From assembly GCA_028696495.1 (NCBI GenBank), contig JAQVGY010000001.1:24105-88104 (forward strand): a DNA stretch of 64,000 bases, in the 5' to 3' direction. The notes below the pieces were generated by a model, which did no database searches, had not been told where the DNA came from, and worked only from the letters and a program-made list of their open reading frames with translations. This document shows, piece by piece, positions 7,144 to 45,711 of the stretch. The DNA is from Atribacterota bacterium. GTDB lineage: Bacteria > Atribacterota > Phoenicimicrobiia > Phoenicimicrobiales > Stramentimicrobiaceae. Made by a program: the position numbers and the translations under genes. Every line of letters starts with the position of its first letter. The first letter of the stretch is position 1.

Positions 7144-9219
7144 TTAAATTATACATGATATTTTTTTTATTACATCTTCAGGGGCAATTTCATAATAAGC
7201 AAATTGCATCACATATATAGCCCTGCCCTGGGTGATCGATCTTAAATTAGTAGCATAGCCAAAAACTTCCTGTAATGGAACATGGGCTATTATTATTTTA
7301 CCCTTAATATTACTCTTTTCCTGAATTCCTAATATTTTTGCTCTGCGAGAATTTAAGTCACTAATAATTGAGCCCAGATACTCTTCAGGAGTCCTAATCT
7401 CTATTTCCACAATTGGTTCCAATAGCACTGGATTAGCTTTTTTTAATCCTTCTTTCAAAGCGATGGATGCAGCAATTTTAAAAGCTAATTCAGAAGAGTC
7501 CACTGAATGGAAAGAACCATCTATTACAGAAACTCTTATATTAGTAACTGGATAACTTGCCAATACACCACATAGCATAGCTTCTTGTATCCCTTGCTTT
7601 ACGGCTGGCATATACTCTTTGGGAATACTCCCCCCTACAGTTCGGTCAATAAACTCAAAGGTACCTTCTTTATATGGCTCAACTTCAATAATTACATCAC
7701 CATACTGACCTCTGCCACCACTCTGTCTAATGAATCTACCCCGAGCAGTTGCTTTTTCAGTAACTGTCTCTCTAAAGGCTACCTGTGGTTCACCAATATT
7801 TCCGTCAAGCTTATATTCTCTTAATAATCTATCAACAATAATCTCTAAATGCAGTTCTCCCATACCCGAGATTATGGTCTGACCGGTGTCTTTATTATAA
7901 GCATGTTTAAAAGTTGGGTCTTCTTCCCCAATTTTATTTAAAGCAATAGCCATTTTTTCCCTATCGCCAAGGCTTTTTGGTTCAATGGCAATCGAGATAA
8001 CTGGCTCGGGAAATTTAATCTTTTCTAAAATAATAGGTTTTTTTTCATCACATAGAGTATCTCCGGTTCCAGATTTTTTCAGACCAATAATGGCACCTAA
8101 GTTACCGGCGGATATCTCTTTCACCTGTTCTTTATGGTCAGCATGTATCTTTACTAATCTGTTTATTCTTTCTTTAATATTTTGAGTAGAATTATACACA
8201 TAATGACCTTCACTTATCGTACCAGAATATACTCTTATAAAACATAATCTCCCAAAAAAAGGATCAGTGGTAACTTTAAATACTAAAGCGGACAGTGGTT
8301 CATTGACATCTGTTTTTCTAGTAATCTCTTTGCCTGTTTTTGGGTCTTCCCCTATAATTGGCAATACTTCTAATGGTGAGGGTAAATAATTATTTACTGC
8401 ATCTAAAAGTAATTGTATACCCTTATTTTTCAAAGCTGAACCGCATAACACTGGTACTAATTTATTTCTTATAGTTAATTTTCTTATAGTCTGATATATC
8501 CGTTCTTCACTAATATCTTTATTATACAGGTAGTCTTCCATAAAACTTTCATCTTCTTCAGAAAGAATATCGAACAGCTTTTTTTGTGCTTTTTCCGCTT
8601 CCTTCATATATTTCTCAGGAATCTCCTCAACACAATAATTGGTACCCAAAGAATCAATAGTATATGAATAAGCTTTCATCTGAATGATGTCAATAATGCC
8701 CTGGAAATCTCCTTCTTTTCCCCAGGGTATCTGTGTAACTAATGGTATGGCAGAGAATTTTTCCTTAATCATCTTAATTGTTCCATAAAAATCTGCACCG
8801 GTGCGGTCCATCTTATTGATAAAAGCAATTCTGGGAACCTGATATCGATCAGCTTGATGCCATACGGTCTCAGTCTGTGGCTCTACCCCACCTACAGCAC
8901 AGAAGACTACAATAGCCCCATCTAAAATTCTTAGAGAACGCTCAACTTCAACTGTAAAGTCTACATGGCCTGGCGTATCTATAGTATTAATTTGATAACC
9001 TTTCCAGAAAGATGTAGTAACTGCAGAGCTTATAGTGATACCTCTTTCTCTTTCCTGAGGCATCCAATCCATAGTTGCTGTACCTTCATGAACTTCACCC
9101 ATCTTATGCACTCTGCCAGTATAATACAAAATCCTTTCAGTAACAGTAGTTTTACCGGCATCAATGTGAGCCATAATACCTATATTTCTTACTTTTTGTA
9201 GACCATTTGAGTTTAACAT
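7144..9219 (-). CDS. fusA: elongation factor G
   Basis: ORF-track frame 7144-9294. EF-G homology begins at the internal Met ([35 protein letters not shown]). The upstream 25 K-rich codons are probably over-extension. Domains G, II, III, IV, V all present. Confidence 0.93.
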
Positions 9220-27349: not shown

Positions 27350-28483
27350 CTATTTTTTATAATTAGACTGTGCCTTTTTTTGAAAAGTAATATCCTGGTT
27401 CTTCTTATTAAGTCTTTCTTTTATTCGGCCAAAAATCATTCTCCCTGCAGGTGTCTGTAAAATACTGGTTACCGTTAATTTAACTTTTTCACCTATGTTG
27501 CTCATCCCGTTTTCTACCACAATCATTGTTCCATCATCCAGATAGGCAACACCCTGACCGGATTCTTTACCCTCCTTAATTATCTGGGTTACTAATTCTT
27601 CTCCGGGTAATATTATTGATTTTAAGGCATTTGCCAGATCATTAATATTTAAAACCGTTACATTCTCTAATTGAGCCAATTTATTTAAATTATAATCATT
27701 GGTCAGTATTTTGGCATCTAATTCTTTGGCTAATTTTATTAATTTAGTATCAACAGTCTTTAATTCGGTATAGTCACGACTGATTATTTTTATTTTGTTA
27801 GTATGTACCTTATTTATTTTATTCAAAACATCTAAACCCCGTCTTCCTCTATTTCTTTTTAATGGTTCTGAAGAATCGGCTATAGCTTGTAATTCGTTTA
27901 ATACAAAGCGGGGAATAATTAAAATTCCTTCTAAAAAATCAGTCTGAGAAATATCGGCTATCCTGCCATCAATAATGACACTGGTATCTAATATCTTCAA
28001 TTGAGAATGAGAGCTTTTTTCTCTTTTTTTAAATCTTTCAATATTTTTTTTATAGAAATTAACGCTTTCTGCTCTTTTGCTCAACCCCAGGGTAATTCCC
28101 AATAAACCGAGTGTTACATTAAGAATTATAGGTAAATAATTACCTATAAAGGGGATAAATGATAGTGAGTATGCTAATAAATTGGCAATAATCAATCCGA
28201 CAATTAAGCCTATTACGCCAGAAAGTATGTTCTGAGCAGGTATTTTTTGAAAATAGGTTATGATTCTTTTTCCGAAAAAATTTAATTTCTTATAACTGAG
28301 AATAAACAATATAAATCCAAAAAAACTTCCTATAATAAATGATATAACAGGAATTAACCATTTGTGATCGGAAAATATGCTTAAGTTGTTTAAGACTTTT
28401 GTACCAGGAATGAGTTCATAACCAAATATTCCTCCTGCCAGAATAAAGAGTGAACACATTATTTTTTTGGTTAAACCTGACAA
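27350..28483 (-). CDS. membrane-anchored PIN/TRAM-domain protein (YacL/PinL-like)
   Basis: 377 aa. About 4 N-terminal TM helices, then a PIN domain ([15 protein letters not shown]...) and a C-terminal TRAM-like beta domain ([18 protein letters not shown]). Same position (after radA, before cysS) as B. subtilis yacL. Confidence 0.7.
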
Positions 28484-28667: not shown

Positions 28668-30026
28668 TCATTTATTGAGCAATGATACTATATCGTTTAT
28701 ATTGTTGATAGTTTTTACCTCTAAATGATCATATTTTTTTGAAATATGTTGTCCATTATCATATGGAATAATACATTTTTTAAAGCCAATATTTTGGGCT
28801 TCTTTGAGCCTCCTTTCACATAATCCCACTGAACGCACTTCTCCAGTCAAGCCCAGTTCACCAAAAACAACAGTATCTAAAGGTATGGCTAAGTTTTTTA
28901 TACTGCTTATAATCGCCACAGCAATCCCTAAATCTATTGCCGGTTCACTTATCTTGATACCACCTGCGGTATTTATATAGATATCTTTATTCTGTAATTG
29001 TATCTTTATTTTATTTTCTAAAACAGCAATGATTAAAGATACTCTATTATAATCAACACCTGTGGTTAACCGGCGAGGGTAATTTAAATAAGAAGAGCTG
29101 GTTAATGCCTCAATTTCTACCGCCAGAGGACGACTTCCTTCAAAGGTAATAGTGGTAACAGTGCCAGGTATAGGTTGCTCTCTTGAAGTTAAAAGTATTT
29201 TGGAAGGATTTTTGACTTCTTTTAAACCATTATTTTCCATTTGGAAAATACCCAGTTCATTTGTGGCTCCAAATCTATTTTTTATACTTCTAAGAAGCCT
29301 GTAAGATTGAAATCTCTCTCCCTCAAGATATAATACCGTATCAACAATATGTTCAAGCGTTTTTGGTCCGGCTATTCCTCCATCCTTTGTTACATGACCA
29401 ATAATTAAAAGTGCGATATTTTCTTTTTTGGCTATTTCCATTAACCGAGAAGTACAACTTTTTACTTGAGCAACACTTCCAGGTGCAGAGGGAATATTGG
29501 AATCATTAATAATTTGTATGGAATCAATAATGGCTATTTTTGGTTTTATTTCGAGCATCTGTGCAACTATTTTTTCCAGGTTATTTTCTGATAATAGATA
29601 AATGAGTTCAGAGCTGACTGATAACCTGGTTGCTCTGAGATAAATCTGTCTAAGTGATTCTTCAGCTGAAACATAAAGAATTTTACCTACTATGTCTATT
29701 AATTGCTGAGCAATTTGCAAGGCTAATGTTGATTTACCTATACCTGGTTCACCTCCGAGCAATACCAGTGAACCAGGAACAATACCTCCACCTAAAACGC
29801 GGTCGAATTCTGCTATACCTGTCATATAACGTTGTTCATCGCCGGTGTATTTTAGCTTACTGATAGGTTTAGCCAGATCTTTTTTTTCAATCTTTACATT
29901 TCTTTCTGAAACATCTATTGCTAAAAGAGAGTTCCATGCTCCACAATTTGGACACCGCCCCAACCAGCGAGAGGTTTCAAAATTACATTCCTTGCAATGA
30001 TAATATTCAGAACTACCTTTCATCAC
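28668..30026 (-). CDS. radA: DNA repair protein RadA/Sms
   Basis: 452 aa; C4 zinc finger CKECNFETSRWLGRCPNCGAW, Walker A GGEPGIGKST, KNRFG motif, Lon-protease-like C-terminal domain. Confidence 0.92.
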   Translation of the reverse strand: MMKGSSEYYHCKECNFETSRWLGRCPNCGAWNSLLAIDVSERNVKIEKKDLAKPISKLKYTGDEQRYMTGIAEFDRVLGGGIVPGSLVLLGGEPGIGKSTLALQIAQQLIDIVGKILYVSAEESLRQIYLRATRLSVSSELIYLLSENNLEKIVAQMLEIKPKIAIIDSIQIINDSNIPSAPGSVAQVKSCTSRLMEIAKKENIALLIIGHVTKDGGIAGPKTLEHIVDTVLYLEGERFQSYRLLRSIKNRFGATNELGIFQMENNGLKEVKNPSKILLTSREQPIPGTVTTITFEGSRPLAVEIEALTSSSYLNYPRRLTTGVDYNRVSLIIAVLENKIKIQLQNKDIYINTAGGIKISEPAIDLGIAVAIISSIKNLAIPLDTVVFGELGLTGEVRSVGLCERRLKEAQNIGFKKCIIPYDNGQHISKKYDHLEVKTINNINDIVSLLNK

Positions 30027-30067: not shown

Positions 30068-32554
30068 TCATTCGCTGTCACTATTATCTTGATATTTTTC
30101 TTTTTCCTTATGACTATCTTTTAGTTCTTTTTTTTCAAAAATAATCTTATCTTTCTTAGCTCCAATAAATAGATGTTCCCCATCCTTCAACTCACCGGAT
30201 AATATTTTTTCTGAAATTGGATTCTCTACCAATCTTTCAATTGTTCTTCTTAAAGGCCTGGCACCAAAGTTAGGATCATATCCTTCTTTTGCTAAAATAT
30301 CTTTGGCACTATTACTAACTGAAAAAGTTATTTTTTGTTCTGCTAATAATTCTTTCACTTCATTCAGTAATAGATCTGCAATCTTTCTAATTTCAATTTT
30401 GGTAAGACTTTTGAAGACAATTATTTCATCAATTCGATTAAGAAATTCCGGTCGAAATGTCTTATTTAATTCACTCATAACCCTGTCTTTTATATCTTTG
30501 TAGGACATTTGTTCAGGTTCGTTTGAACTTCTAAAACCTAAAGAAGTTCCTTTTTTAATTAGGGTAGCCCCCACATTAGAAGTCATAATTATGACAGTGT
30601 TTTTAAAATCTACCACCCTGCCCTGAGCATCTGTCAATCTCCCATCCTCAAATATCTGTAACAGTATATTGAAGACATCAGGATGAGCCTTTTCAATCTC
30701 ATCCAGCAAAACTACTGAATAGGGTCGTCTTCTCACCTTCTCAGTTAGCTGTCCCCCTTCTTCATAGCCCACATAACCAGGAGGGGCTCCAACCAATCTG
30801 GAAACTGCAAATTTTTCCATATATTCAGACATATCTAAACTGATCATAGCATTTTCATCCCCAAACAAAAACTCAGCTAAACTTCTTGCCAGTTCAGTTT
30901 TACCTACTCCTGTGGGACCTAAAAAAACAAATGAACCAATCGGTCTCCTGGGATCTTTCATACCAGCCCTGGCTCTGCGTACAGCTCTGGATATTGCCGT
31001 AATAGCATCATCCTGACCAATAATCCGCTTATGTAGCTCATCTTCCATTCTAATAAGCTTTTTAGCTTCTTCTTCTTTCAGAGAATAAACGGGGACTCCG
31101 CTCCAGCTGGAAACAACTTCTGCTACATCTTCCACAGTGACTTCTATTTTATCTTTGGTTTTTCCAATTTCCCATTCTTTCTTAATTTCATTATATTTTT
31201 CTTCAAATTTTCTTTCCTTATCTCTTAATTTAGCCGCCTTTTCAAATTGTTGTAACCTCACTGCAGCCTCTTTTTCTTTTCTAACCTTTAGTAATTCTTC
31301 TTCAATGTCTTTTACATCAGGCGGAAAAACAGTATTTTTTAGTTTTACCCGGGAAGATGCTTCATCTATTACATCGATAGCCTTATCAGGTAAAAAACGG
31401 CCTGAAACATACCTTGCTGCTAACTTTACTGCTGATATTAAAGACTGATCAGTAATAGTCAATTTATGATGGGCTTCATATTTATCTCTCAATCCTTTAA
31501 GTATTTCAATAGCCTCCTCAACGGTAGGCTCAGGTACATTAATGGGTTGAAAACGCCTCTCTAATGCTTTATCTTTTTCAATATATTTTCTATATTCATC
31601 AGTTGTAGTTGCACCAATAGTCTGAATCTCACCGCGAGCCAGAGCAGGTTTTAATATATTGGATGCGTCGATAGCCCCTTCAGCGGCACCGGCACCAACA
31701 AGAGTATGAAATTCATCTATAAATAGGATTACATCATTGGAATTTTCGACTTCTTTGACTATCTTTTTGAGACGTTTTTCGAACTCTCCTCTATATTTTG
31801 TACCGGCAACTATTAAAGCAAGGTCTAAAGAGATTATTCTCTTATTTTTTAAGATTTCAGGAACATCATTATTGGCTATTTTTTGAGCCAACCCCTCAAC
31901 AATAGCTGTTTTCCCAACACCGGCCTCTCCAATTAAACAGGGATTATTCTTCTTCCTTCTGCTCAATATCTGTATTACTCTTTGAATCTCATTATTTCTG
32001 CCCACCACAGGATCTAATTTTTCTTCTCTGGCTAATTCGGTTAAATCTCTCCCGAATTCATCTAATGTTGGAACTTTGCTCTCTTTTCTAACAACACTTC
32101 CAGGTTCATCGGGATTACCACTTTCCATTAATAACTTTAATATACGGGTATAAATATTCTCTAAATCTAATCCCATCTGTGTTAAGATACGTGTTGCAAC
32201 ACCACTACCTTCTTTGATTAGACCCAAAAGAATATGTTCTGTACCTATATAATTCTGTCCTAATCTACTTGCTTCCTGTGAGGCTAATTCTAATACTTTT
32301 TTAGCTCTTGGTGTAAAAGTAATCTCACTAACTTCCTGATATTTTCCTCTTCCCACTATCTTTTCAATCTCTTCAATAACTCTTTCCGGGTCAACACCTG
32401 AATCACGCAGGACTCTGCTGGCAATTCCATCATTTTCCTTAACCAGGCCAACTAAAATGTGCTCGGTTCCTATATAGTTATGATTAAGATTCACCGCTTC
32501 TTCTTGTGCCATCATAATCACTTTTCTTACTTTTTCGGTATATCTTTTGAACAT
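30068..32554 (-). CDS. clpC: ATP-dependent Clp protease ATP-binding subunit ClpC
   Basis: ORF-track frame to 32569. Preferred start [20 protein letters not shown]. Two N-terminal Clp repeats, UVR-like motif, AAA1 [11 protein letters not shown]2 [11 protein letters not shown]. Confidence 0.92.
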
Positions 32555-32642: not shown

Positions 32643-33719
32643 CTAATCTAATAATTCTTGAATTATTTTGGCTCTAGCAATATCCCGCTCATTTTCATTC
32701 ATTTTTTTATTTTTCAATAATTGAATGTATGCTGATTGTATTATTAACATGAGCCGATTAATAGTATCATACCCAATCTTAGTAAATATGCCCAATTCTA
32801 TGCCAAATCTGATCTTGGACAATAAATCGATTGCCTCTAATGTGGATATGATTCTTGCATTCGTAAGTATACCATATGCACGTAAAATTTGGTCCTCTAT
32901 TCTCTGCCTGGAGTGCAACATCAATTCCTCTCTTGCCCTTTCTTCTTCATCAATTAATAGCCTGCTAATCATTTCTAATTTCTTAATAATCTCATTCTCT
33001 TTTAACCCCATGGTTACCTGGTTGGAGACCTGAAACAAGTTACCCTGAAAATCTGTACCTTCTCCGTAGAACCCTCTCACTGCATATCCCGTCTTAGATA
33101 TTGATGACAACAAATCATTCAATTTATTTTTATAAAACAGTCCTGGCAAATGCAACATGACAGAAGCTCTTAGCCCTGTACCGGCATTGGTAGGACAGCA
33201 GGTTAAAAACCCTTCGTTTTCATTAAAAGAGTATTCAATTTCTTTCATAATCTGGTCATCATAGCAATCGATTATCTCCCAGACTTTTTCTAATTGAAAA
33301 CCAGGGAGCAGACATTGTATTCTAAAATGGTCCTCTTCATTGACCATTATACTGATAATTTCATCTGGTTTGTATATAAAAGCTCTATAAGGGTAACCCA
33401 ATTGGGCTAAAGATAGACTGATGAGACGCTTTTCAACTAAAAATTGTATATCTAAATCAGTTAAATCATCTATTTTGATCAGTTTAAAATCCTGAAAAAA
33501 GCTATTATTTTTTATCAGGTTTTCACTTTTTTTCAGTACCTGTTCTAACTGATTTGGATTTGCCTTGAAAGGGAAGGGAATATCTTGAATATTTCTGGCT
33601 AATCGCAATCTGGTACTAACTACTATATGATTCAAAGGGCCATCACCTTTAGTCCACCCGGAGGTTGTATCCCTTAATTCGCGTATAAGCAAAGCCTCTT
33701 TATTACTCATTATTTCCAT
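32643..33719 (-). CDS. mcsB: protein-arginine kinase McsB
   Basis: 358 aa; guanidino-kinase fold motifs CPTNAGTGLRASVMLHLPGL, RLARNIQDIPFPF. Overlaps mcsA by 17 nt. Confidence 0.9.
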   Translation of the reverse strand: MEIMSNKEALLIRELRDTTSGWTKGDGPLNHIVVSTRLRLARNIQDIPFPFKANPNQLEQVLKKSENLIKNNSFFQDFKLIKIDDLTDLDIQFLVEKRLISLSLAQLGYPYRAFIYKPDEIISIMVNEEDHFRIQCLLPGFQLEKVWEIIDCYDDQIMKEIEYSFNENEGFLTCCPTNAGTGLRASVMLHLPGLFYKNKLNDLLSSISKTGYAVRGFYGEGTDFQGNLFQVSNQVTMGLKENEIIKKLEMISRLLIDEEERAREELMLHSRQRIEDQILRAYGILTNARIISTLEAIDLLSKIRFGIELGIFTKIGYDTINRLMLIIQSAYIQLLKNKKMNENERDIARAKIIQELLD

Positions 33720-34245
33720 CTTCTAATCTCTTCTCTTCTTCAATAATCATATCTCTTAATTTTGCTGCTTTTTCATATTCTTCTTTTAAGATTAGCTTTT
33801 GCATTTCATCTTTAATCTCATTTATTCTATTCAACCGAATGTTCCGTTCTTTGATTGCAGGGGGGAGCTTCCCAATATGTTCTGCATTCCCATGTAATCT
33901 GCATAGAATTGGATTCAATTGTTTTCTAAAATATTCATAGCACTGGTTGCAACCAAGCTTACCTGATTGTACAAATTCCTGATAAGTCATTCCACAATGG
34001 GGACAGTTATCTTCTTCGTTTAAGCCCTCTGCTCCTTTCCCTCTATCTAATTTTATAAATGAACTCAAAAGGTTTCCCAAAATTTCATTTATATTATATT
34101 GAGAAAATGAAAAGGAAGAAATCGCGCTTCCTAAAAGGCTGTGAGCACAGTCGTTACAAATATACAGTTCAATTTTTTTAACTCCCACTACTTTTGTAAT
34201 TGTTACGGTAGCATCGTTTTTTTTGCAAATCTGGCAAATCATCAC
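33703..34245 (-). CDS. mcsA: protein-arginine kinase activator McsA
   Basis: 180 aa; two CxxC zinc-finger pairs (CQICKK...CNDC, CPHCGM...CNQC) and a UVR motif [13 protein letters not shown]. Close to the B. subtilis McsA layout. Confidence 0.88.
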   Translation of the reverse strand: MMICQICKKNDATVTITKVVGVKKIELYICNDCAHSLLGSAISSFSFSQYNINEILGNLLSSFIKLDRGKGAEGLNEEDNCPHCGMTYQEFVQSGKLGCNQCYEYFRKQLNPILCRLHGNAEHIGKLPPAIKERNIRLNRINEIKDEMQKLILKEEYEKAAKLRDMIIEEEKRLEDGNNE

Positions 34246-34307
34246 TTTATATCCTATTATAATATTTAATTTAATTTGACTAATTTTTATTGGGTATATT
34301 GGTAAAT

Positions 34308-34580
34308 TTATCTAAGAAATTTGATAATTAGTTCAATAATTTCATCTAAATTATTCTGGTATATAAAAACATCATCAGAAGAATTGAGACAGGAATATAC
34401 TTTCTCTTCCAATAATAATTTGTTAATTCTATTTAAAGCAGACTTCACTGCAGAAACCTGGGTCAGAATGTCAGCACAGGTTCGGTTTTCTACAATCATA
34501 GATTGAATTCCTCTAATCTGCCCTTCTATTTTTTTTAAACGGTGCAAAATTTTTATCTTGTTAATCTCTTCGATTTCCAT
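34308..34580 (-). CDS. CsoR/RcnR/FrmR-family (DUF156) repressor, C-K-C type (CstR-like, non-metal thiol sensor?)
   Basis: 90 aa; family fingerprint HRLKKIEGQIRGIQSMIVENRTCADILTQVSAVKSALNRINKLLLEEKVYSC. Ligand positions X=Cys35, Y(+25)=Lys where Cu-CsoR has His, Z(+29)=Cys64. Confidence 0.8.
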   Translation of the reverse strand: MEIEEINKIKILHRLKKIEGQIRGIQSMIVENRTCADILTQVSAVKSALNRINKLLLEEKVYSCLNSSDDVFIYQNNLDEIIELIIKFLR

Positions 34581-34600
34581 TTTTTATCCTGACTTTTTAT

Positions 34601-34617
34601 ATACCCCCCTAGGGTAT
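34601..34617 (-). promoter_or_regulatory. candidate CsoR-family operator: C-tract/G-tract palindrome ATACCC-N5-GGGTAT
   Basis: Sequence atacccccctagggtat. It is GC-rich in an AT-rich spacer, sits between the -10 element and the RBS of the CsoR-like gene, and resembles the GC-rich tract palindromes bound by CsoR/RcnR-family repressors. Confidence 0.5.
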
Positions 34618-34621
34618 TAAT

Positions 34622-34649
34622 ATTATAACTCTTACATATATTTTGTCAA
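34622..34649 (-). promoter_or_regulatory. consensus sigma-A promoter of the CsoR-like/mcsA/mcsB/clpC unit
   Basis: Minus strand: TTGACA - 16 nt - TATAAT. Followed by the palindrome, RBS AGGA and the ATG. Confidence 0.55.
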
Positions 34650-34810
34650 TATCCTGTGATTACAATATTATAATAATTTTTAAATATTTAGTTATAAAGC
34701 AGCAGTGAGACTATTTAATGAAGGGATTTTTGGTAGATTCCAATTATTTCTGCTTAAAGTTAATATAAAACAACAATTTTGTGAATATATGTTTATTCAA
34801 AAAAGATATT

Positions 34811-34840
34811 ATAAAAATAGACAGACTCTCAGTCTGTCTA
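34811..34840 (-). terminator. rho-independent terminator downstream of pgk
   Basis: Perfect 10-bp stem tagacagact / agtctgtcta with a 3-nt loop. On the minus strand it is followed by tttttat. It lies 66 nt past the pgk stop. Confidence 0.65.
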
Positions 34841-34905: not shown

Positions 34906-36117
34906 TTATTTTTTTAATACCTCAATTCCCGGTAGATTCCTGCCTGCTACATATTCCAATGAAGCCCCTCCACCTGTTGAGATATGAGAAAATTTATTAA
35001 TAAGTCCCAGTTTATTAATAGCAGCAATTGAATCTCCCCCTCCGACTACAGAAAAAACCTTTCCATGTAAACTGGCAATCTGTCTTGCAATTTCATTGGT
35101 TCCCTTAGCAAATTTATCCATTTCAAAAACACCCAGGGGACCATTCCAAAATATTTTTTTAGAATTGCTAATTACCTTTTTAAACGACTCTATCGTCCTG
35201 TTACCTATATCCATACCAATCATATTTTTTTCAATTTTTTCTTTAGATACATTGAAACTATCGGAATCTTGAGTAAATTCAAAGGCTATATTAACATCTT
35301 CCGGAATTAAAAAAACTTTCTCCATGATTTTTGCTTTTTCCATCAGCTCTTTACAAAATTTGATTTGGTCTTCTTCATATATAGATTTACCAATTTCAAA
35401 TCCCTGTGCTGCAATAAAAGTGTATGCCATACCTCCACCTATCAATACTCCATCACTTATTTCTGTTAATCTATCGAGTATTTCAATTTTACTGCTTACT
35501 TTTGCTCCCCCAATTATAGAAATAAAAGGCCTATCAGAATGAAACATTAATCTATTCAAAGATTTTATTTCCTGAGCCATTAAAAAACCGGCATATGCGG
35601 GTAAATATGAAGCTATACCAGCAGTAGAAGCATGTGCCCTGTGGGCTGCGCCAAAGGCATCATCGACATATATATCTGCTAAAGAGGCAAGTTGTTGGGA
35701 AAATACAGGGTCATTATCCTCTTCACCCTGGTGAAAACGTAAATTTTCTAATAAAACAATTTCTCCCGGGTTCAATTTGAAGATTATTTTTTGAACATCC
35801 TCTCCAATGCAATCATCTAATTTAATTACCCTTCTTTGAAGAATATTTTCTAAAGAAAGAGCCACCGGGTCCATTCTTAATTTTTCTTCAACATGACCTT
35901 TAGGTCTGCCCAGGTGGCTCATCAGTATTACTATACAATTATTTGATAATAAATACTTTATAGTATCTAAAGAAGCCCTTATTCTGGTATCATCCTTAAC
36001 ATTCAGCTTCTCATCTAAAGGCACATTGAAATCTACTCGGACCAGTACTCTCTTTTTTTCTATCTCATTTCCCTTTAAATCTTCCAGTAATGATAGAGAT
36101 TGGTATTTTCCTTTCAT
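34906..36117 (-). CDS. pgk: phosphoglycerate kinase
   Basis: ORF-track frame to 36159. Preferred start MKGKYQSL with RBS ggagag. Motifs VLVRVDFNVPLD, MSHLGRPKG, GGGASLE. Confidence 0.93.
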   Translation of the reverse strand: MKGKYQSLSLLEDLKGNEIEKKRVLVRVDFNVPLDEKLNVKDDTRIRASLDTIKYLLSNNCIVILMSHLGRPKGHVEEKLRMDPVALSLENILQRRVIKLDDCIGEDVQKIIFKLNPGEIVLLENLRFHQGEEDNDPVFSQQLASLADIYVDDAFGAAHRAHASTAGIASYLPAYAGFLMAQEIKSLNRLMFHSDRPFISIIGGAKVSSKIEILDRLTEISDGVLIGGGMAYTFIAAQGFEIGKSIYEEDQIKFCKELMEKAKIMEKVFLIPEDVNIAFEFTQDSDSFNVSKEKIEKNMIGMDIGNRTIESFKKVISNSKKIFWNGPLGVFEMDKFAKGTNEIARQIASLHGKVFSVVGGGDSIAAINKLGLINKFSHISTGGGASLEYVAGRNLPGIEVLKK

Positions 36118-36207
36118 TTTACTCTCCATATCTATAAATATTAAATATCTAAAACACAATTGGTTAAATCCGTTAAATGTTTCAGAATGGGTGTTACTGT
36201 ATCTAAA

Positions 36208-43935: not shown

Positions 43936-45711
43936 CTACTCCGCTTCCCCAATATTTCTGTTCTTAATATCTAAAAATATCTCATGATATCCATCTATAA
44001 CAAAATCAGTTTCCAGTATGACTTTTAAGTTGTTTTCGGAATTATCCTTACCACTTCTAATTTTTGAGTCCGAACTGTTATCATCATTAAACAAAATGAT
44101 TTCAACAATTATTTGATTATTTTTTTCTTTTTCTTTTAGATGTTTTTCAATCTCATCCCAGCCATTTAAGAGGTAGCGCTCTTCCTCTTGACTTATAGAC
44201 TGCTCTCCGATAATCTCTTTGGATAACCCCCCTCTGACCGTTAAAACTGCATTACCGGGAGCAATATTTTCAGGTAACTTTATTTGAACTGTTCTTTTCT
44301 CATCTGGCTGTCTGAAAGGAGTGACTATGATTTCTGCCTCAACTTCATCTCCGGGAAAATGGTTTTCAGTGTTCAATATTACTTTTTTAATATGAGCTTT
44401 GTTAATATTCTTTTTTATAGAAACATTTATTACTATCTCATTCAAATCTATCTTTTCATAAAAATTATAATATAATAAATCAAATATATTGTTCAAATCT
44501 CTGCTTATTTCGACTGCTATATCATTTTCACTATAAAATATATTGTTATAATTTAAAACATCTCCGGTATCCGCATTTCTAAAACCCAGCTTGATATCCC
44601 CTGTCCCCTGCCCAATTCTATTGATGGTATTGTCAACAGTCTGGATTAAAAGAGCAGGTACTACACTTTCCACAATCTCCTTTTCTGGCACCACTTTTAC
44701 CCCGGCATTATTCTCCAAATTACGGTCTAAATCAGATACACTTATCTTACAAGAGACTATGCTGGGAAATTTGTTTAACTTTGCCAGTATTCCTGCATTC
44801 CTATCCTGAATAACTTCCCCGAGTAGAAGAAAGGGTGAGCCAATTTTAAAAGGCATAACGATACTGGGGAAGCTATGGTATATATAGACAGAAGTAAGTA
44901 GATATGATACATCACCACGATGCATGAAGGGATGGCCTAATGCCAATACATATTTGTCCTGACAATAGGTGGCAGTTCCTATTCCCATTATATTTATATC
45001 ACCGGTAGATAACTGCACGCCAATAGCAGAGCCAGGTTGTACCTTTTTAATCTCCGTACCAATCTCTAATTCAGGCTTAATATCATGGTATCCTGATATA
45101 TTTTGTATCACTGTGATACCATATTTTTTAAGTTTTTCTTTAATTAAACTATCAGCTCGACCATAAAATCCATTGATTATCAAGGGTGATTGAATATAGT
45201 GAAAATTAATATTTTTCTTCTCATTATTAACTATAGGGTTAAAGCTTACATTCTGATTACCCTCCCCTATATAATCTAAAAGAGTAAGCATTATATCAAT
45301 AGGTGTTATCAGACATAGATTATGTTCACTCAATTCCCAGGCATGTGATATTGCCCCTGCTAATTTTCCATTAAAATATACCGGGCTTCCGCTCATTCCA
45401 GCCGAAATTCCGCCATTGTTCTCAATTCTATCCCCACTCAACTTCACTAGTATATATGGGTAAGTAATGCCTGAACCATGAATAATATCGATTACCTCTA
45501 CCCCAAATTCTTCTATTTTTGTTCCCTCAAAAACAGTTTTCCCTACCCCTTTCATCCCGGAATGAATATCATTAATTAAAATAAATTCTTCCTGGTTTGG
45601 TAAACTTGCATTTACAGGAATACAACTAAGATAGAATATTACAATAATTGAAATACTGAATAGTAATCTAAATAAATATTCATGTAATTTATGTTCTTCA
45701 AAAGGCATCAT
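43936..45711 (-). CDS. secreted/anchored serine peptidase, SpoIVB (S55)-like N-terminal domain with about 400-aa extension
   Basis: 591 aa; N-terminal hydrophobic anchor; His (VIDIIHGSG), Asp (LSGDRI) and Ser motif GISAGMSGSPVY like the SpoIVB GMSGSPI active site. The downstream region is unassigned. Confidence 0.55.
   Translation of the reverse strand: MMPFEEHKLHEYLFRLLFSISIIVIFYLSCIPVNASLPNQEEFILINDIHSGMKGVGKTVFEGTKIEEFGVEVIDIIHGSGITYPYILVKLSGDRIENNGGISAGMSGSPVYFNGKLAGAISHAWELSEHNLCLITPIDIMLTLLDYIGEGNQNVSFNPIVNNEKKNINFHYIQSPLIINGFYGRADSLIKEKLKKYGITVIQNISGYHDIKPELEIGTEIKKVQPGSAIGVQLSTGDINIMGIGTATYCQDKYVLALGHPFMHRGDVSYLLTSVYIYHSFPSIVMPFKIGSPFLLLGEVIQDRNAGILAKLNKFPSIVSCKISVSDLDRNLENNAGVKVVPEKEIVESVVPALLIQTVDNTINRIGQGTGDIKLGFRNADTGDVLNYNNIFYSENDIAVEISRDLNNIFDLLYYNFYEKIDLNEIVINVSIKKNINKAHIKKVILNTENHFPGDEVEAEIIVTPFRQPDEKRTVQIKLPENIAPGNAVLTVRGGLSKEIIGEQSISQEEERYLLNGWDEIEKHLKEKEKNNQIIVEIILFNDDNSSDSKIRSGKDNSENNLKVILETDFVIDGYHEIFLDIKNRNIGEAE

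Follow-up and report, generated by a model that had tools for sequence, protein, structure and literature searches.

Which regulator governs the arginine kinase and ClpC genes of Atribacterota, and to what does it respond? Nearly all work on McsB, McsA and ClpC, and on phosphorylated arginine as a mark for degradation, concerns Firmicutes, in which CtsR represses the operon and is itself a substrate of McsB. The window analysed here, which is the whole stretch of 64,000 nucleotides from the metagenome-assembled genome of an Atribacterota bacterium, harbours mcsA, mcsB and clpC behind a gene encoding a CsoR-like protein. An earlier note on this DNA had proposed that the operon is placed under a redox or reactive-sulfur-responsive switch of CsoR type instead of, or in addition to, CtsR. 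We consider it somewhat better than an even chance (probability about 0.55) that this CsoR/RcnR-family protein is a non-orthologous stand-in for CtsR, which represses its own gene and gates mcsA-mcsB-clpC(-radA-yacL). Literature searches returned no paper linking CsoR-family proteins to mcsAB-clpC, no paper on CtsR in Atribacterota, and nothing relevant on the phylum distribution of CtsR and McsB.

Gene organisation of the locus

The csoR-like gene (34308-34580, minus strand) opens a series of tightly spaced genes on one strand. It is followed by mcsA, encoding the arginine kinase activator (33703-34242, minus strand; four CxxC, UVR motif, Pfam UVR), for which NCBIfam McsA was the best match (E 9.9e-45, under the curated cut-off), and by mcsB, encoding the protein arginine kinase (32643-33719, minus strand; Pfam ATP-gua_Ptrans, E 1.2e-62), whose product passes the equivalog profile NCBIfam NF002194 with 410 bits at a cut-off of 385. 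mcsB and the mcsA stop overlap by 17 nt. The class III AAA+ unfoldase gene clpC (30068-32554, minus strand) encodes an N-terminal domain that matches ClpC/ClpC1 N-domains (E 1e-47) and possesses both IGTEHIL repeats, in which the phospho-arginine sites of ClpC lie in B. subtilis. radA (28668-30023, minus strand; Pfam Zn-ribbon, KaiC-type ATPase and Lon_C/ChlI domains) follows clpC after 45 bp and is probably transcribed together with it, and a yacL-like PIN/TRAM gene (27350-28483, minus strand; Pfam PIN and TRAM) comes next. These domain and profile matches bear out the syntenic order of mcsA, mcsB and clpC, then radA and yacL, that had been described for this DNA. The downstream macro-synteny of the window matches the order clpC-radA-yacL-cysS-sigH-like ... 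nusG-rplKAJL-rpoBC, which is that of the Bacillus region.

The upstream neighbour pgk (phosphoglycerate kinase; 34906-36129, minus strand; Pfam PGK, E 8e-150) lies outside the unit. At its end an intrinsic-terminator-like hairpin was found (34818-34840, minus strand; 10-bp stem, 3-nt loop, then a T-run), which is predicted to insulate the promoter of the csoR-like gene from pgk transcription.

Family, fold and sensor residues of the CsoR-like protein

The translation of the csoR-like open reading frame, MEIEEINKIKILHRLKKIEGQIRGIQSMIVENRTCADILTQVSAVKSALNRINKLLLEEKVYSCLNSSDDVFIYQNNLDEIIELIIKFLR, comprises 90 amino acids and matches PF02583 with E 4.5e-25 and 88.3 bits (cut-off 22.8), which confirms the earlier reading of the first gene as a DUF156 protein and places it in the CsoR/RcnR family. 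The AF2 model of the monomer is an all-alpha protomer of three helices (5-30, 35-66 and 75-89; pLDDT 86). Foldseek searches with this model gave InrS, CstR and CsoR as the best matches, then FrmR, a mixed answer as to subfamily. Sequence similarity was alike for Cu-CsoR (4m1p, E 1.6e-14), Ni-InrS (E 2.5e-14) and SpCstR (7mq1, E 4.1e-14) and much weaker for FrmR (E 3.5e-6), and the NCBIfam profiles RicR, FrmR and RcnR all scored far below their cut-offs. The protein is thus equidistant from the CsoR, InrS and CstR subfamilies. An assignment by sequence or fold was rejected, and the subfamily comparison that the earlier note had suggested brings the protein no closer to CstR than to the other two.

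Alignment to solved CsoR, InrS and CstR structures places Cys35 at the family cysteine and Cys64 at the second cysteine, while Lys60 aligns with the histidine of CsoR and with Asn55 of SpCstR, as expected from the triad with replaced histidine read before. The second-shell tyrosine, which precedes Cys35 at position 34, is threonine in the window protein. The x-C-H-C triad of Cu(I)-CsoR is therefore absent, and the ancestral Cu(I) site is degraded.

In the Atribacterota clade, 69 distinct orthologue cores were surveyed. Cys35 and Cys64 are both kept in 33/69 (48%), as they are in the window protein; Cys35 is retained in 60 and lost in 9, and none of the 69 lacks both. Position 35 drifts among C/Y/F/S, position 60 among K/H/R/E (K/R/E in 52/69) and position 64 among C/W/F/S/Y/R, and the tyrosine at position 34 is replaced by T/S/P. 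The C-H-C triad was found in only two cores and in one species representative (L017), and the JS1-type group retains C-H. Among the species representatives from the genome scan L007 is the nearest (86% identical), and it has tyrosine at position 35. Such drift would not usually be seen in a finely tuned chemical sensor. R14, R23, R33, Q21, Q26 and Q41 are invariant in the clade; the arginines are conserved throughout the CsoR family and hence are not specific to it.

FrmR is a formaldehyde sensor with a single Cys35 and a cross-link site at Pro2. Single-cysteine variants of the clade (C-H-W, C-K-F) recall its one-cysteine pocket, whereas the csoR-like locus has no frmA-type gene. A Pro2-Cys mechanism like that of FrmR was rejected for the window protein, which begins with MEIEE and has no Pro2 at matching distance; L016 and L020 alone have a Pro2, and there its distance to the cysteine differs from that in FrmR.

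Promoter, operator and intergenic region

Promoter P1 of the csoR-like gene (TTGACA-N16-TATAAT; 34622-34649, minus strand) matches the consensus at 12/12 positions, with TTGACA at 34649-34644, a 16-nt spacer and TATAAT at 34627-34622. Four nucleotides past the -10 begins a predicted CsoR-type operator of 17 bp (34601-34617, no strand assigned; ATACCCTAGGGGGGTAT on the coding strand, ATACCCCCCTAGGGTAT on the forward strand), which spans the predicted +1. The Shine-Dalgarno sequence AGGA (34587-34590, minus strand), as read from the sequence, and the ATG at 34580 follow. This promoter anatomy, from TTGACA over the palindrome to the ATG, was found in place just as the earlier note had described it. 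Its suggested search for further copies of ATACCC-N5-GGGTAT was carried out on the 64-kb window, where the exact motif is present in a single copy, the operator itself. An Rfam scan of the window detected four tRNAs only, and no leader or riboswitch near the csoR-like gene.

The box has the G/C tract with AT-rich inverted repeats, located at a promoter, that is typical of CsoR/RcnR-family operators, and it closely resembles the cst operator of S. mitis, ATATACCCTTATGGGGTATAT (PMC8643695). A metagenome scan for the box ATACCCYWNGGGGGTAT yielded, among the matches listed, mostly high-GC contigs of other phyla. A CsoR-family gene was encoded at 38/80 of the box-carrying loci among these matches, and Atribacterota sites were not among them, so that further members of the regulon were not obtained. 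We regard the operator as the generic CsoR/CstR-type box, and as a genuine CsoR-family operator type.

The gap between the csoR-like gene and mcsA (62-65 bp; 34243-34307, minus strand) was searched for a terminator and for a second promoter (P2), and neither was found; a terminator at this place had been named beforehand as one of the observations that would speak against joint control. The gap contains no usable sigma-70 promoter, its best match reaching 8/12 with a -10 that abuts the Shine-Dalgarno sequence. Read-through from P1 across this gap is therefore plausible.

Conservation across Atribacterota

The genome scan recovered 22 other species representatives of Atribacterota, whose repressor is 48-86% identical to that of the window. 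The order pgk/csoR-like/mcsA/mcsB/clpC/radA is kept in 22/22, with the position of radA conserved at every locus long enough to show it, and mcsAB-clpC was found near csoR-like homologues of other phyla at 0/58 loci. In a footprint of 23 upstream regions from Atribacterota species only the -35, the -10, ATACCC and GGGTAT are invariant, TTGACA and TAT.AT being the invariant promoter columns. The operator box occurs exactly once per locus, at constant position, in 28 Atribacterota loci. Because P1, the box and the gene order recur in 22/22 other species, their combination is not due to chance. Adjacency alone is weak evidence of functional coupling, since synteny throughout the phylum extends over the whole block from pgk to yacL.

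Terminator-like hairpins are missing from the csoR-like/mcsA gap in 21/22 loci and in the window. Directly before mcsA, 13/22 related species possess a P2 that matches the consensus at 12/12 positions and lacks a CsoR box, and 2 more of the 22 have an 11/12 match there. The window and L007, L008, L009 and L012 lack P2, and their gap measures 19-72 bp without a terminator. Judging from these promoter matches, P2 would weaken exclusive control by the repressor in the 13 species, though not in the window, and where P2 is present mcsAB-clpC expression may depend little on the repressor. No correlation between the presence of P2 and the type of sensor triad was apparent.

All 120 matches listed in a McsB search for outgroup lineages belong to the Atribacterota clade, with at least 50% identity. 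One match within this clade is named 'Bacteroidales' and is probably mis-binned.

Comparison with CtsR

Searches with CtsR (3h0d) by tblastn gave no match at E<=10 in the window and none in 86 loci, in agreement with the earlier statement that the 64-kb window has no CtsR gene. The CtsR domains PF05848 and PF17727 were not found in the csoR-like protein, which contains PF02583 only. No CtsR box with <=2 mismatches was detected at the 22 loci or in the window, and the best match to the tandem heptad operator A/GGTCAAANANA/GGTCAAA has 3 mismatches, which is at chance level. The weak half CtsR box once reported in the gap before mcsA was rejected on the same ground (3 mismatches; the window has 20 matches of this quality where 12.8 are expected). 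A CtsR search of a collection of 5.8 billion proteins listed 120 matches, all of Bacillaceae type, and is uninformative on Atribacterota.

Like CtsR of Firmicutes (PDB 3h0d), the csoR-like protein is small, is encoded by the first gene of the mcsA-mcsB-clpC operon, and is probably an autorepressor with an operator overlapping its promoter. The likeness of heading mcsA-mcsB-clpC, seen in the window and in 22/22 Atribacterota species, is positional only. The two proteins have no sequence or fold relationship: the csoR-like protein is a three-helix bundle, whereas CtsR has a winged HTH and a dimerisation domain, and the operators are an inverted repeat with a G/C tract and a tandem heptad direct repeat, respectively. 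Describing the csoR-like gene as standing instead of ctsR draws on Firmicutes for comparison, whereas the organism belongs to Atribacterota.

Proposed control of the operon

By analogy with the family, the csoR-like protein would bind as a tetramer to the single box ATACCCTAGGGGGGTAT over the start site. We infer that occupancy of the box would silence the transcription of its own gene and also that of the arginine kinase and ClpC genes read through from P1; the latter would be shut off too because in the window no terminator and no second promoter interrupt the 62-65 bp gap. Given the slot, the promoter, the box, the uninterrupted gap and the phylum-wide conservation, it is reasonable to read the sequence as placing the operon under this repressor.

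As to the signal, copper is unlikely because His60 is replaced by lysine and the second-shell tyrosine by threonine. A thiol-based signal is plausible, since no orthologue has lost both Cys35 and Cys64. We tentatively favour thiol-reactive stress (oxidants, electrophiles, reactive sulfur) as inducer, which would covalently modify the remaining pocket cysteine or cysteines in one- or two-cysteine fashion; this is the least certain step of the proposal and one for which we would not claim even odds. Through such a modification, thiol or proteotoxic stress would act directly on the expression of ClpC and McsB. Work by Elsholz and colleagues from 2011 is said to have found that thiol stress de-represses the CtsR regulon in Firmicutes too. 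Feedback of McsB/ClpC on the repressor is possible. Of the redox or reactive-sulfur switch on ClpC/McsAB that was originally suggested, control of CsoR type is retained on the strength of anatomy and conservation; the CstR/persulfide assignment from the C-K-C triad is not supported as it was put.

Alternative explanations

Inactivation of the repressor by proteins encoded in its own operon, with the Cys/His pocket as a decaying relic, is a rather unlikely alternative. Under proteotoxic or heat stress McsA would activate McsB, which would phosphorylate the DNA-contacting R14, R23 and R33, and ClpC-ClpP would then degrade the repressor. The linkage of repressor, mcsA and mcsB in 22/22 species recalls the operon logic of ctsR-mcsA-mcsB-clpC, the sensing triad varies while the three arginines and three glutamines stay invariant, McsB scores above its equivalog cut-off, and both IGTEHIL repeats are present in the N-domain of ClpC. 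Yet arginines common to the whole CsoR family provide no signature specific to the clade, a pocket that always keeps at least one cysteine does not seem free to decay, and the action of McsB on a CsoR fold is a prediction by analogy. In its full form, in which the CtsR circuit arose by convergence around an unrelated fold, with the CsoR-fold repressor as a McsA/McsB substrate degraded by ClpCP and the pocket vestigial or a secondary input, we consider this rather improbable. The CstR-like assignment drawn from C-K-C in the earlier note is less probable again. In a bona fide persulfide sensor of this type, di- to tetrasulfide cross-links between Cys35 and Cys64' would release the DNA. The window protein has the x-C-x-C pattern with replaced histidine, and its operator is similar to those of CstR (S. 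aureus, S. pneumoniae 7mq1, E. faecalis). Atribacterota inhabit sulfidic anoxic habitats, which also suits this reading. Against it, the protein resembles CsoR and InrS as closely as it does CstR; sqr, rhodanese, persulfide dioxygenase and CoA-persulfide reductase genes are all lacking within +/-10 kb by Pfam content, unlike cst-type loci with their adjacent sulfur genes, and the dithiol is kept in fewer than half of the orthologues, with Tyr35 in L007. The resolving cysteine is poorly conserved in cluster-10 CstRs also (PMC8643695), a point in favour of CstR.

That the CsoR-like protein is an incidental neighbour, which only autoregulates or controls distant genes while mcsA-mcsB-clpC is transcribed separately in a frozen gene order, we judge to be improbable. 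The box-free P2 before mcsA in 13/22 species, the single box per locus and the synteny of the whole pgk-to-yacL block agree with it. The window and the four loci without P2, with their short terminator-free gaps, do not, nor does the tight spacing of the genes on one strand, and the adjacency is present for every homologue inside the phylum and for none outside. Very improbable is a sensor that still responds to Cu(I) or another thiophilic metal and couples metal stress to ClpC. The window protein possesses two cysteines, C-H-C persists in L017 and two of the cores, and C-H in the JS1-type group; family and fold are those of the Cu(I) CsoR proteins of B. subtilis, G. thermodenitrificans (4m1p) and M. 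tuberculosis (2hh7), which also have an operator of type ATACCC...GGGGGTAT at their own promoter. However, lysine replaces His60, Tyr34 is absent, the triad is variable, and the target operon serves protein quality control. No copA/copZ, metal-efflux, metal-chaperone, P1B-ATPase or HMA genes were found within +/-10 kb, whereas a P1B-ATPase/HMA gene adjoins 26/58 of the homologue loci of other phyla.

Significance

The automatic annotation of the csoR-like gene, 'metal-sensitive transcriptional regulator', is to be corrected, as it probably mis-states the signal and does not mention the likely target, protein quality control. The deep-branching phylum Atribacterota possesses the same operon in the same chromosomal neighbourhood but has at its head the gene of a CsoR-family repressor unrelated to CtsR, an arrangement that suggests an alternative switch for protein quality control. 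Control of the repressor by McsB, if real, would make it the first transcription factor besides CtsR and HrcA to be controlled in this way; it would also be the first member of the CsoR family governed by protein modification instead of a ligand. The locus offers a natural experiment on the essential features of the circuit, on whether another DNA-binding fold can come under McsB control, and on what the CsoR scaffold senses after the decay of its copper site.

Locus anatomy and genomic neighbourhood

All relevant genes of the unit are located on the minus strand of the window. The csoR-like gene, a 90-codon ORF (ATG at 34580, end at 34308), lies downstream of pgk (36129-34906), which ends in a strong hairpin terminator (34840-34818). 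About 170 bp past this hairpin is P1, the promoter of the csoR-like gene, a perfect sigma-70 match with TTGACA at 34649-34644, a 16-nt spacer and TATAAT at 34627-34622. The candidate CsoR operator (34617-34601, hereafter the box) starts four bases after the -10 and reads ATACCCTAGGGGGGTAT on the coding strand; the version in the earlier note, ATACCCCCCTAGGGTAT, is the plus-strand reading. The exact ATACCC-N5-GGGTAT pattern has a single copy in the whole 64 kb window. The AGGA of the csoR-like gene is at 34590-34587, and a gap of 62-65 bp separates the gene from mcsA, which mcsB overlaps by 17 nt. Next come clpC, radA and a yacL-like gene with PIN and TRAM domains. Sequence reading confirmed the gene, promoter, palindrome and synteny of the earlier note in every detail.

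The csoR-like/mcsA gap of the window contains no terminator-like hairpin. A usable promoter was not found in this gap either, the best match being 8/12 with its -10 abutting the Shine-Dalgarno sequence. P1 is the sole recognisable promoter of the unit in the window, and is predicted to be under the control of the csoR-like repressor.

The wider gene order is ispD-ispE-ispF, followed further on by pgk, csoR-like, mcsA, mcsB, clpC, radA and yacL, and continues with cysS, a sigH-like sigma factor gene, tRNAs, tuf, nusG, rplK-rplA-rplJ-rplL, rpoB and rpoC. This long-range order (10324-45711, minus strand) strikingly resembles the arrangement of the ctsR to rpoC region of B. subtilis despite the phylum distance, which makes a first gene other than ctsR more noticeable. 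The identical protein and locus were found in the Atribacterota MAGs GCA_040770395.1 and GCA_040768705.1, plus several metagenome assemblies; therefore the organism is not a Firmicute. A 591-aa Peptidase_S55 (SpoIVB-like) protein, from a family associated with sporulation signalling in Firmicutes, is encoded at 43936-45711 (minus strand), adjoining mreB and ispD.

Tblastn with PDB 3h0d detected no CtsR homologue in the window or in 86 loci, and the matches listed in a CtsR protein search were dominated by Bacillaceae. A literature search found no paper on ctsR elsewhere in Atribacterota genomes. CtsR boxes with up to two mismatches were absent upstream of the csoR-like gene and in the gap of every species scanned. 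The weak half CtsR box reported before mcsA has three mismatches and was rejected, since its frequency is at chance level (20 such matches in the AT-rich window vs 12.8 expected).

Conservation in Atribacterota and other phyla

One scan of GTDB species-representative genomes with the orthologue-group alignment gave 80 loci, whose gene content was judged by tblastn with the neighbouring proteins of the window. All 22 Atribacterota loci retain pgk, csoR-like, mcsA, mcsB, clpC and radA, and also yacL wherever the contig extends far enough. Repressor identity over these loci is 48-86%, and they span OP9-type (Ca. Stramentimicrobium, Ca. Oleincola) and JS1-type (Ca. Sediminicultor, Ca. Phoenicimicrobium) lineages. 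None of the 58 loci of other phyla has mcsA, mcsB or clpC within 8 kb by tblastn. Their homologues are mostly C-H-C at residues 35-60-64, the sensor triad, and a P1B-ATPase or HMA gene adjoins 26 of the 58; therefore they are ordinary copper sensors.

Among the loci recovered, the closest relatives outside Atribacterota belong to Thermotogota (L030, L038, L039, L043, L044, L046 and L057), with 59-65% identity over residues 11-65, a C-Y-C triad, longer C-termini and a different operon. In this group the csoR-family gene overlaps an ORF of 540-600 aa at the stop of the latter, and downstream lie genes for a protein of ~418 aa with a signal-peptide-like N-terminus and a membrane protein of ~827 aa. 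No CsoR box was found upstream at those seven loci.

Promoters and candidate operator

Across 23 aligned Atribacterota upstream regions, complete invariance is confined to TTGACA, TAT.AT, ATACCC and GGGTAT. Every Atribacterota locus of 16-20 kb carries a single box, without exception just past the -10 of the promoter of the csoR-like gene. Box asymmetry is reversed between the two subclades (C3...G6 to C5...G3), as would be expected if the binder is symmetric. When metagenomes were scanned for ATACCCYWNGGGGGTAT, the matches listed were mostly high-GC contigs of other phyla; of the 80 listed box loci, 38 have a CsoR-family gene, in most cases directly next to the box. The Atribacterota box is also nearly identical to the S. 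mitis cst operator ATATACCCTTATGGGGTATAT used by Fakhoury et al. (PMC8643695). The box is of the generic CsoR-family type, which supports the predicted binding of a CsoR-family repressor and does not indicate its effector.

At six loci (L011, L013, L014, L015, L016, L020) the csoR-like start codon is only 5-8 nt past the operator, so that the G-run of the operator is the only Shine-Dalgarno-like element there and may double as ribosome-binding site. Another six (L021-L024, L026, L027) carry 2-4 tandem repeats of ~7 nt with ATACG, such as GATATAC x4 or CGATACG/CAATACG x4, ~10-45 nt before the -35 of P1, and in L022 and L027 also before P2. These repeats, absent from the window, could be a microsatellite or could bind another regulator.

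P2, a second promoter in the gap directly before mcsA, is a 12/12 match to TTGACA-N18-TATAAT in 13 of 22 species and an 11/12 match in 2 more (loci L011, L013, L015, L016, L018-L027). The gap bearing it spans 57-88 bp in several species of the OP9 type and 199-314 bp in those of the JS1 type, and P2 has no CsoR box beside it. In those species the repressor would be only one input. P2 is absent from the window (34243-34307) and from L007, L008, L009, L012, L017 and L028. No terminator lies in the gap of 21 of the 22 loci, and transcription from the repressed P1 is thus likely to read through into mcsA in all species. JS1-type P2 overlaps an AT-only 7-1-7 palindrome, ATTATAAATTATAAT, and the gap of the JS1-type locus L018 holds four tandem repeats of the heptamer AGAAGTC (~8310-8345).

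Repressor family and sensor site

The csoR-like protein matches PF02583 with 88 bits (cut-off 22.8), and its AlphaFold2 model, built from 42 orthologues (pLDDT 86), has the three family helices (5-30, 35-66, 75-89). Membership in the CsoR/RcnR family is secure; the subfamily is not. Among solved structures, three sensors are equally similar: the G. thermodenitrificans CsoR for Cu(I) (1.6e-14), InrS for Ni (2.5e-14) and SpCstR for persulfide (4.1e-14). FrmR scores much lower, and Foldseek returned the same mixed set of InrS, CstR, CsoR and FrmR. Scores for the NCBIfam RicR, FrmR and RcnR models are far under each cut-off, and the database label is only 'metal-sensitive transcriptional regulator'. 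Aligned to the solved structures, Cys35 is the universal family cysteine, Cys64 the second cysteine, Lys60 occupies the CsoR His position (Asn55 in SpCstR), and Thr34 the second-shell Tyr position of copper sensors.

Among 69 distinct orthologue cores the triad is C-K-C in 26, C-H-W in 13, C-K-F in 8, Y-K-C in 4, F-R-C and C-E-C in 3 each, and C-R-C, C-K-S, S-K-C, C-K-Y, C-H-C and C-H-R in 2 each. Residues R14, E19, Q21-Q26, M28, R33, Q41, A44 and A48 never vary. Given the variation in the triad, copper sensing appears to be lost in most of the Atribacterota clade. Cys35 is kept in 60 cores, Cys64 in 42 and both in 33, and L007, at 86% identity the nearest of the species representatives from the scan, has Tyr35. 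These sequences are incompatible with a strict two-Cys CstR mechanism as the common mode of the clade. No core lacks both cysteines, vs ~3.5 expected under independent loss with phylogeny not accounted for.

Predicted regulation of the operon

With a probability of about 0.7-0.8, the csoR-like protein is an autorepressor gating the operon in the species of the window. Its tetramer would bind the box and shut its own gene, and mcsA-mcsB-clpC, probably with radA and yacL, would be co-transcribed with it. With P1 the only recognisable promoter and no terminator-like hairpin in the gap, the earlier proposal of an operon under a CsoR-type switch is reasonable. That the csoR-like gene is an incidental neighbour of mcsA-mcsB-clpC is improbable.

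The favoured signal, tentatively, is thiol-reactive stress acting on one or both pocket cysteines. The OhrR family provides examples of one- or two-Cys thiol switches. Since at least one cysteine is always kept, and the resolving cysteine is weakly conserved in cluster-10 CstRs (Fakhoury et al., PMC8643695), such a switch would remain the most plausible single effector mode, far from proven. Strict persulfide-specific CstR chemistry, a subset of the thiol-reactive reading, is unlikely: the box is nearly that of the cst operator, yet does not indicate the effector, whereas both cysteines occur in fewer than half of the cores and no sulfur-detoxification genes adjoin the locus. For the same reasons, and because the protein is no closer to CstR than to CsoR or InrS, the CstR-like effector formerly deduced from C-K-C is not established. 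Since most of the clade has lost the copper triad, a metal signal is highly improbable. Inactivation of the repressor by McsB/ClpC, which would make it a true CtsR analogue, is possible but rather doubtful. McsB exceeds its equivalog threshold, McsA has four CxxC motifs and the ClpC N-domain both IGTEHIL repeats; the arginine-phosphorylation machinery therefore looks intact, and this model stays testable. A 531-aa metagenome protein (P0274) with a UVR motif and arginine-kinase domains, 58% identical to the McsB of the window, is apparently either a fusion of McsA and McsB or a merged gene call.

The literature searched does not describe a CsoR-family repressor at the head of an arginine-kinase/ClpC operon. 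The component parts are all of known kinds; what is new with respect to the searchable literature is their combination, in which a CsoR-family repressor whose metal site has decayed is fixed phylum-wide at the head of this operon.
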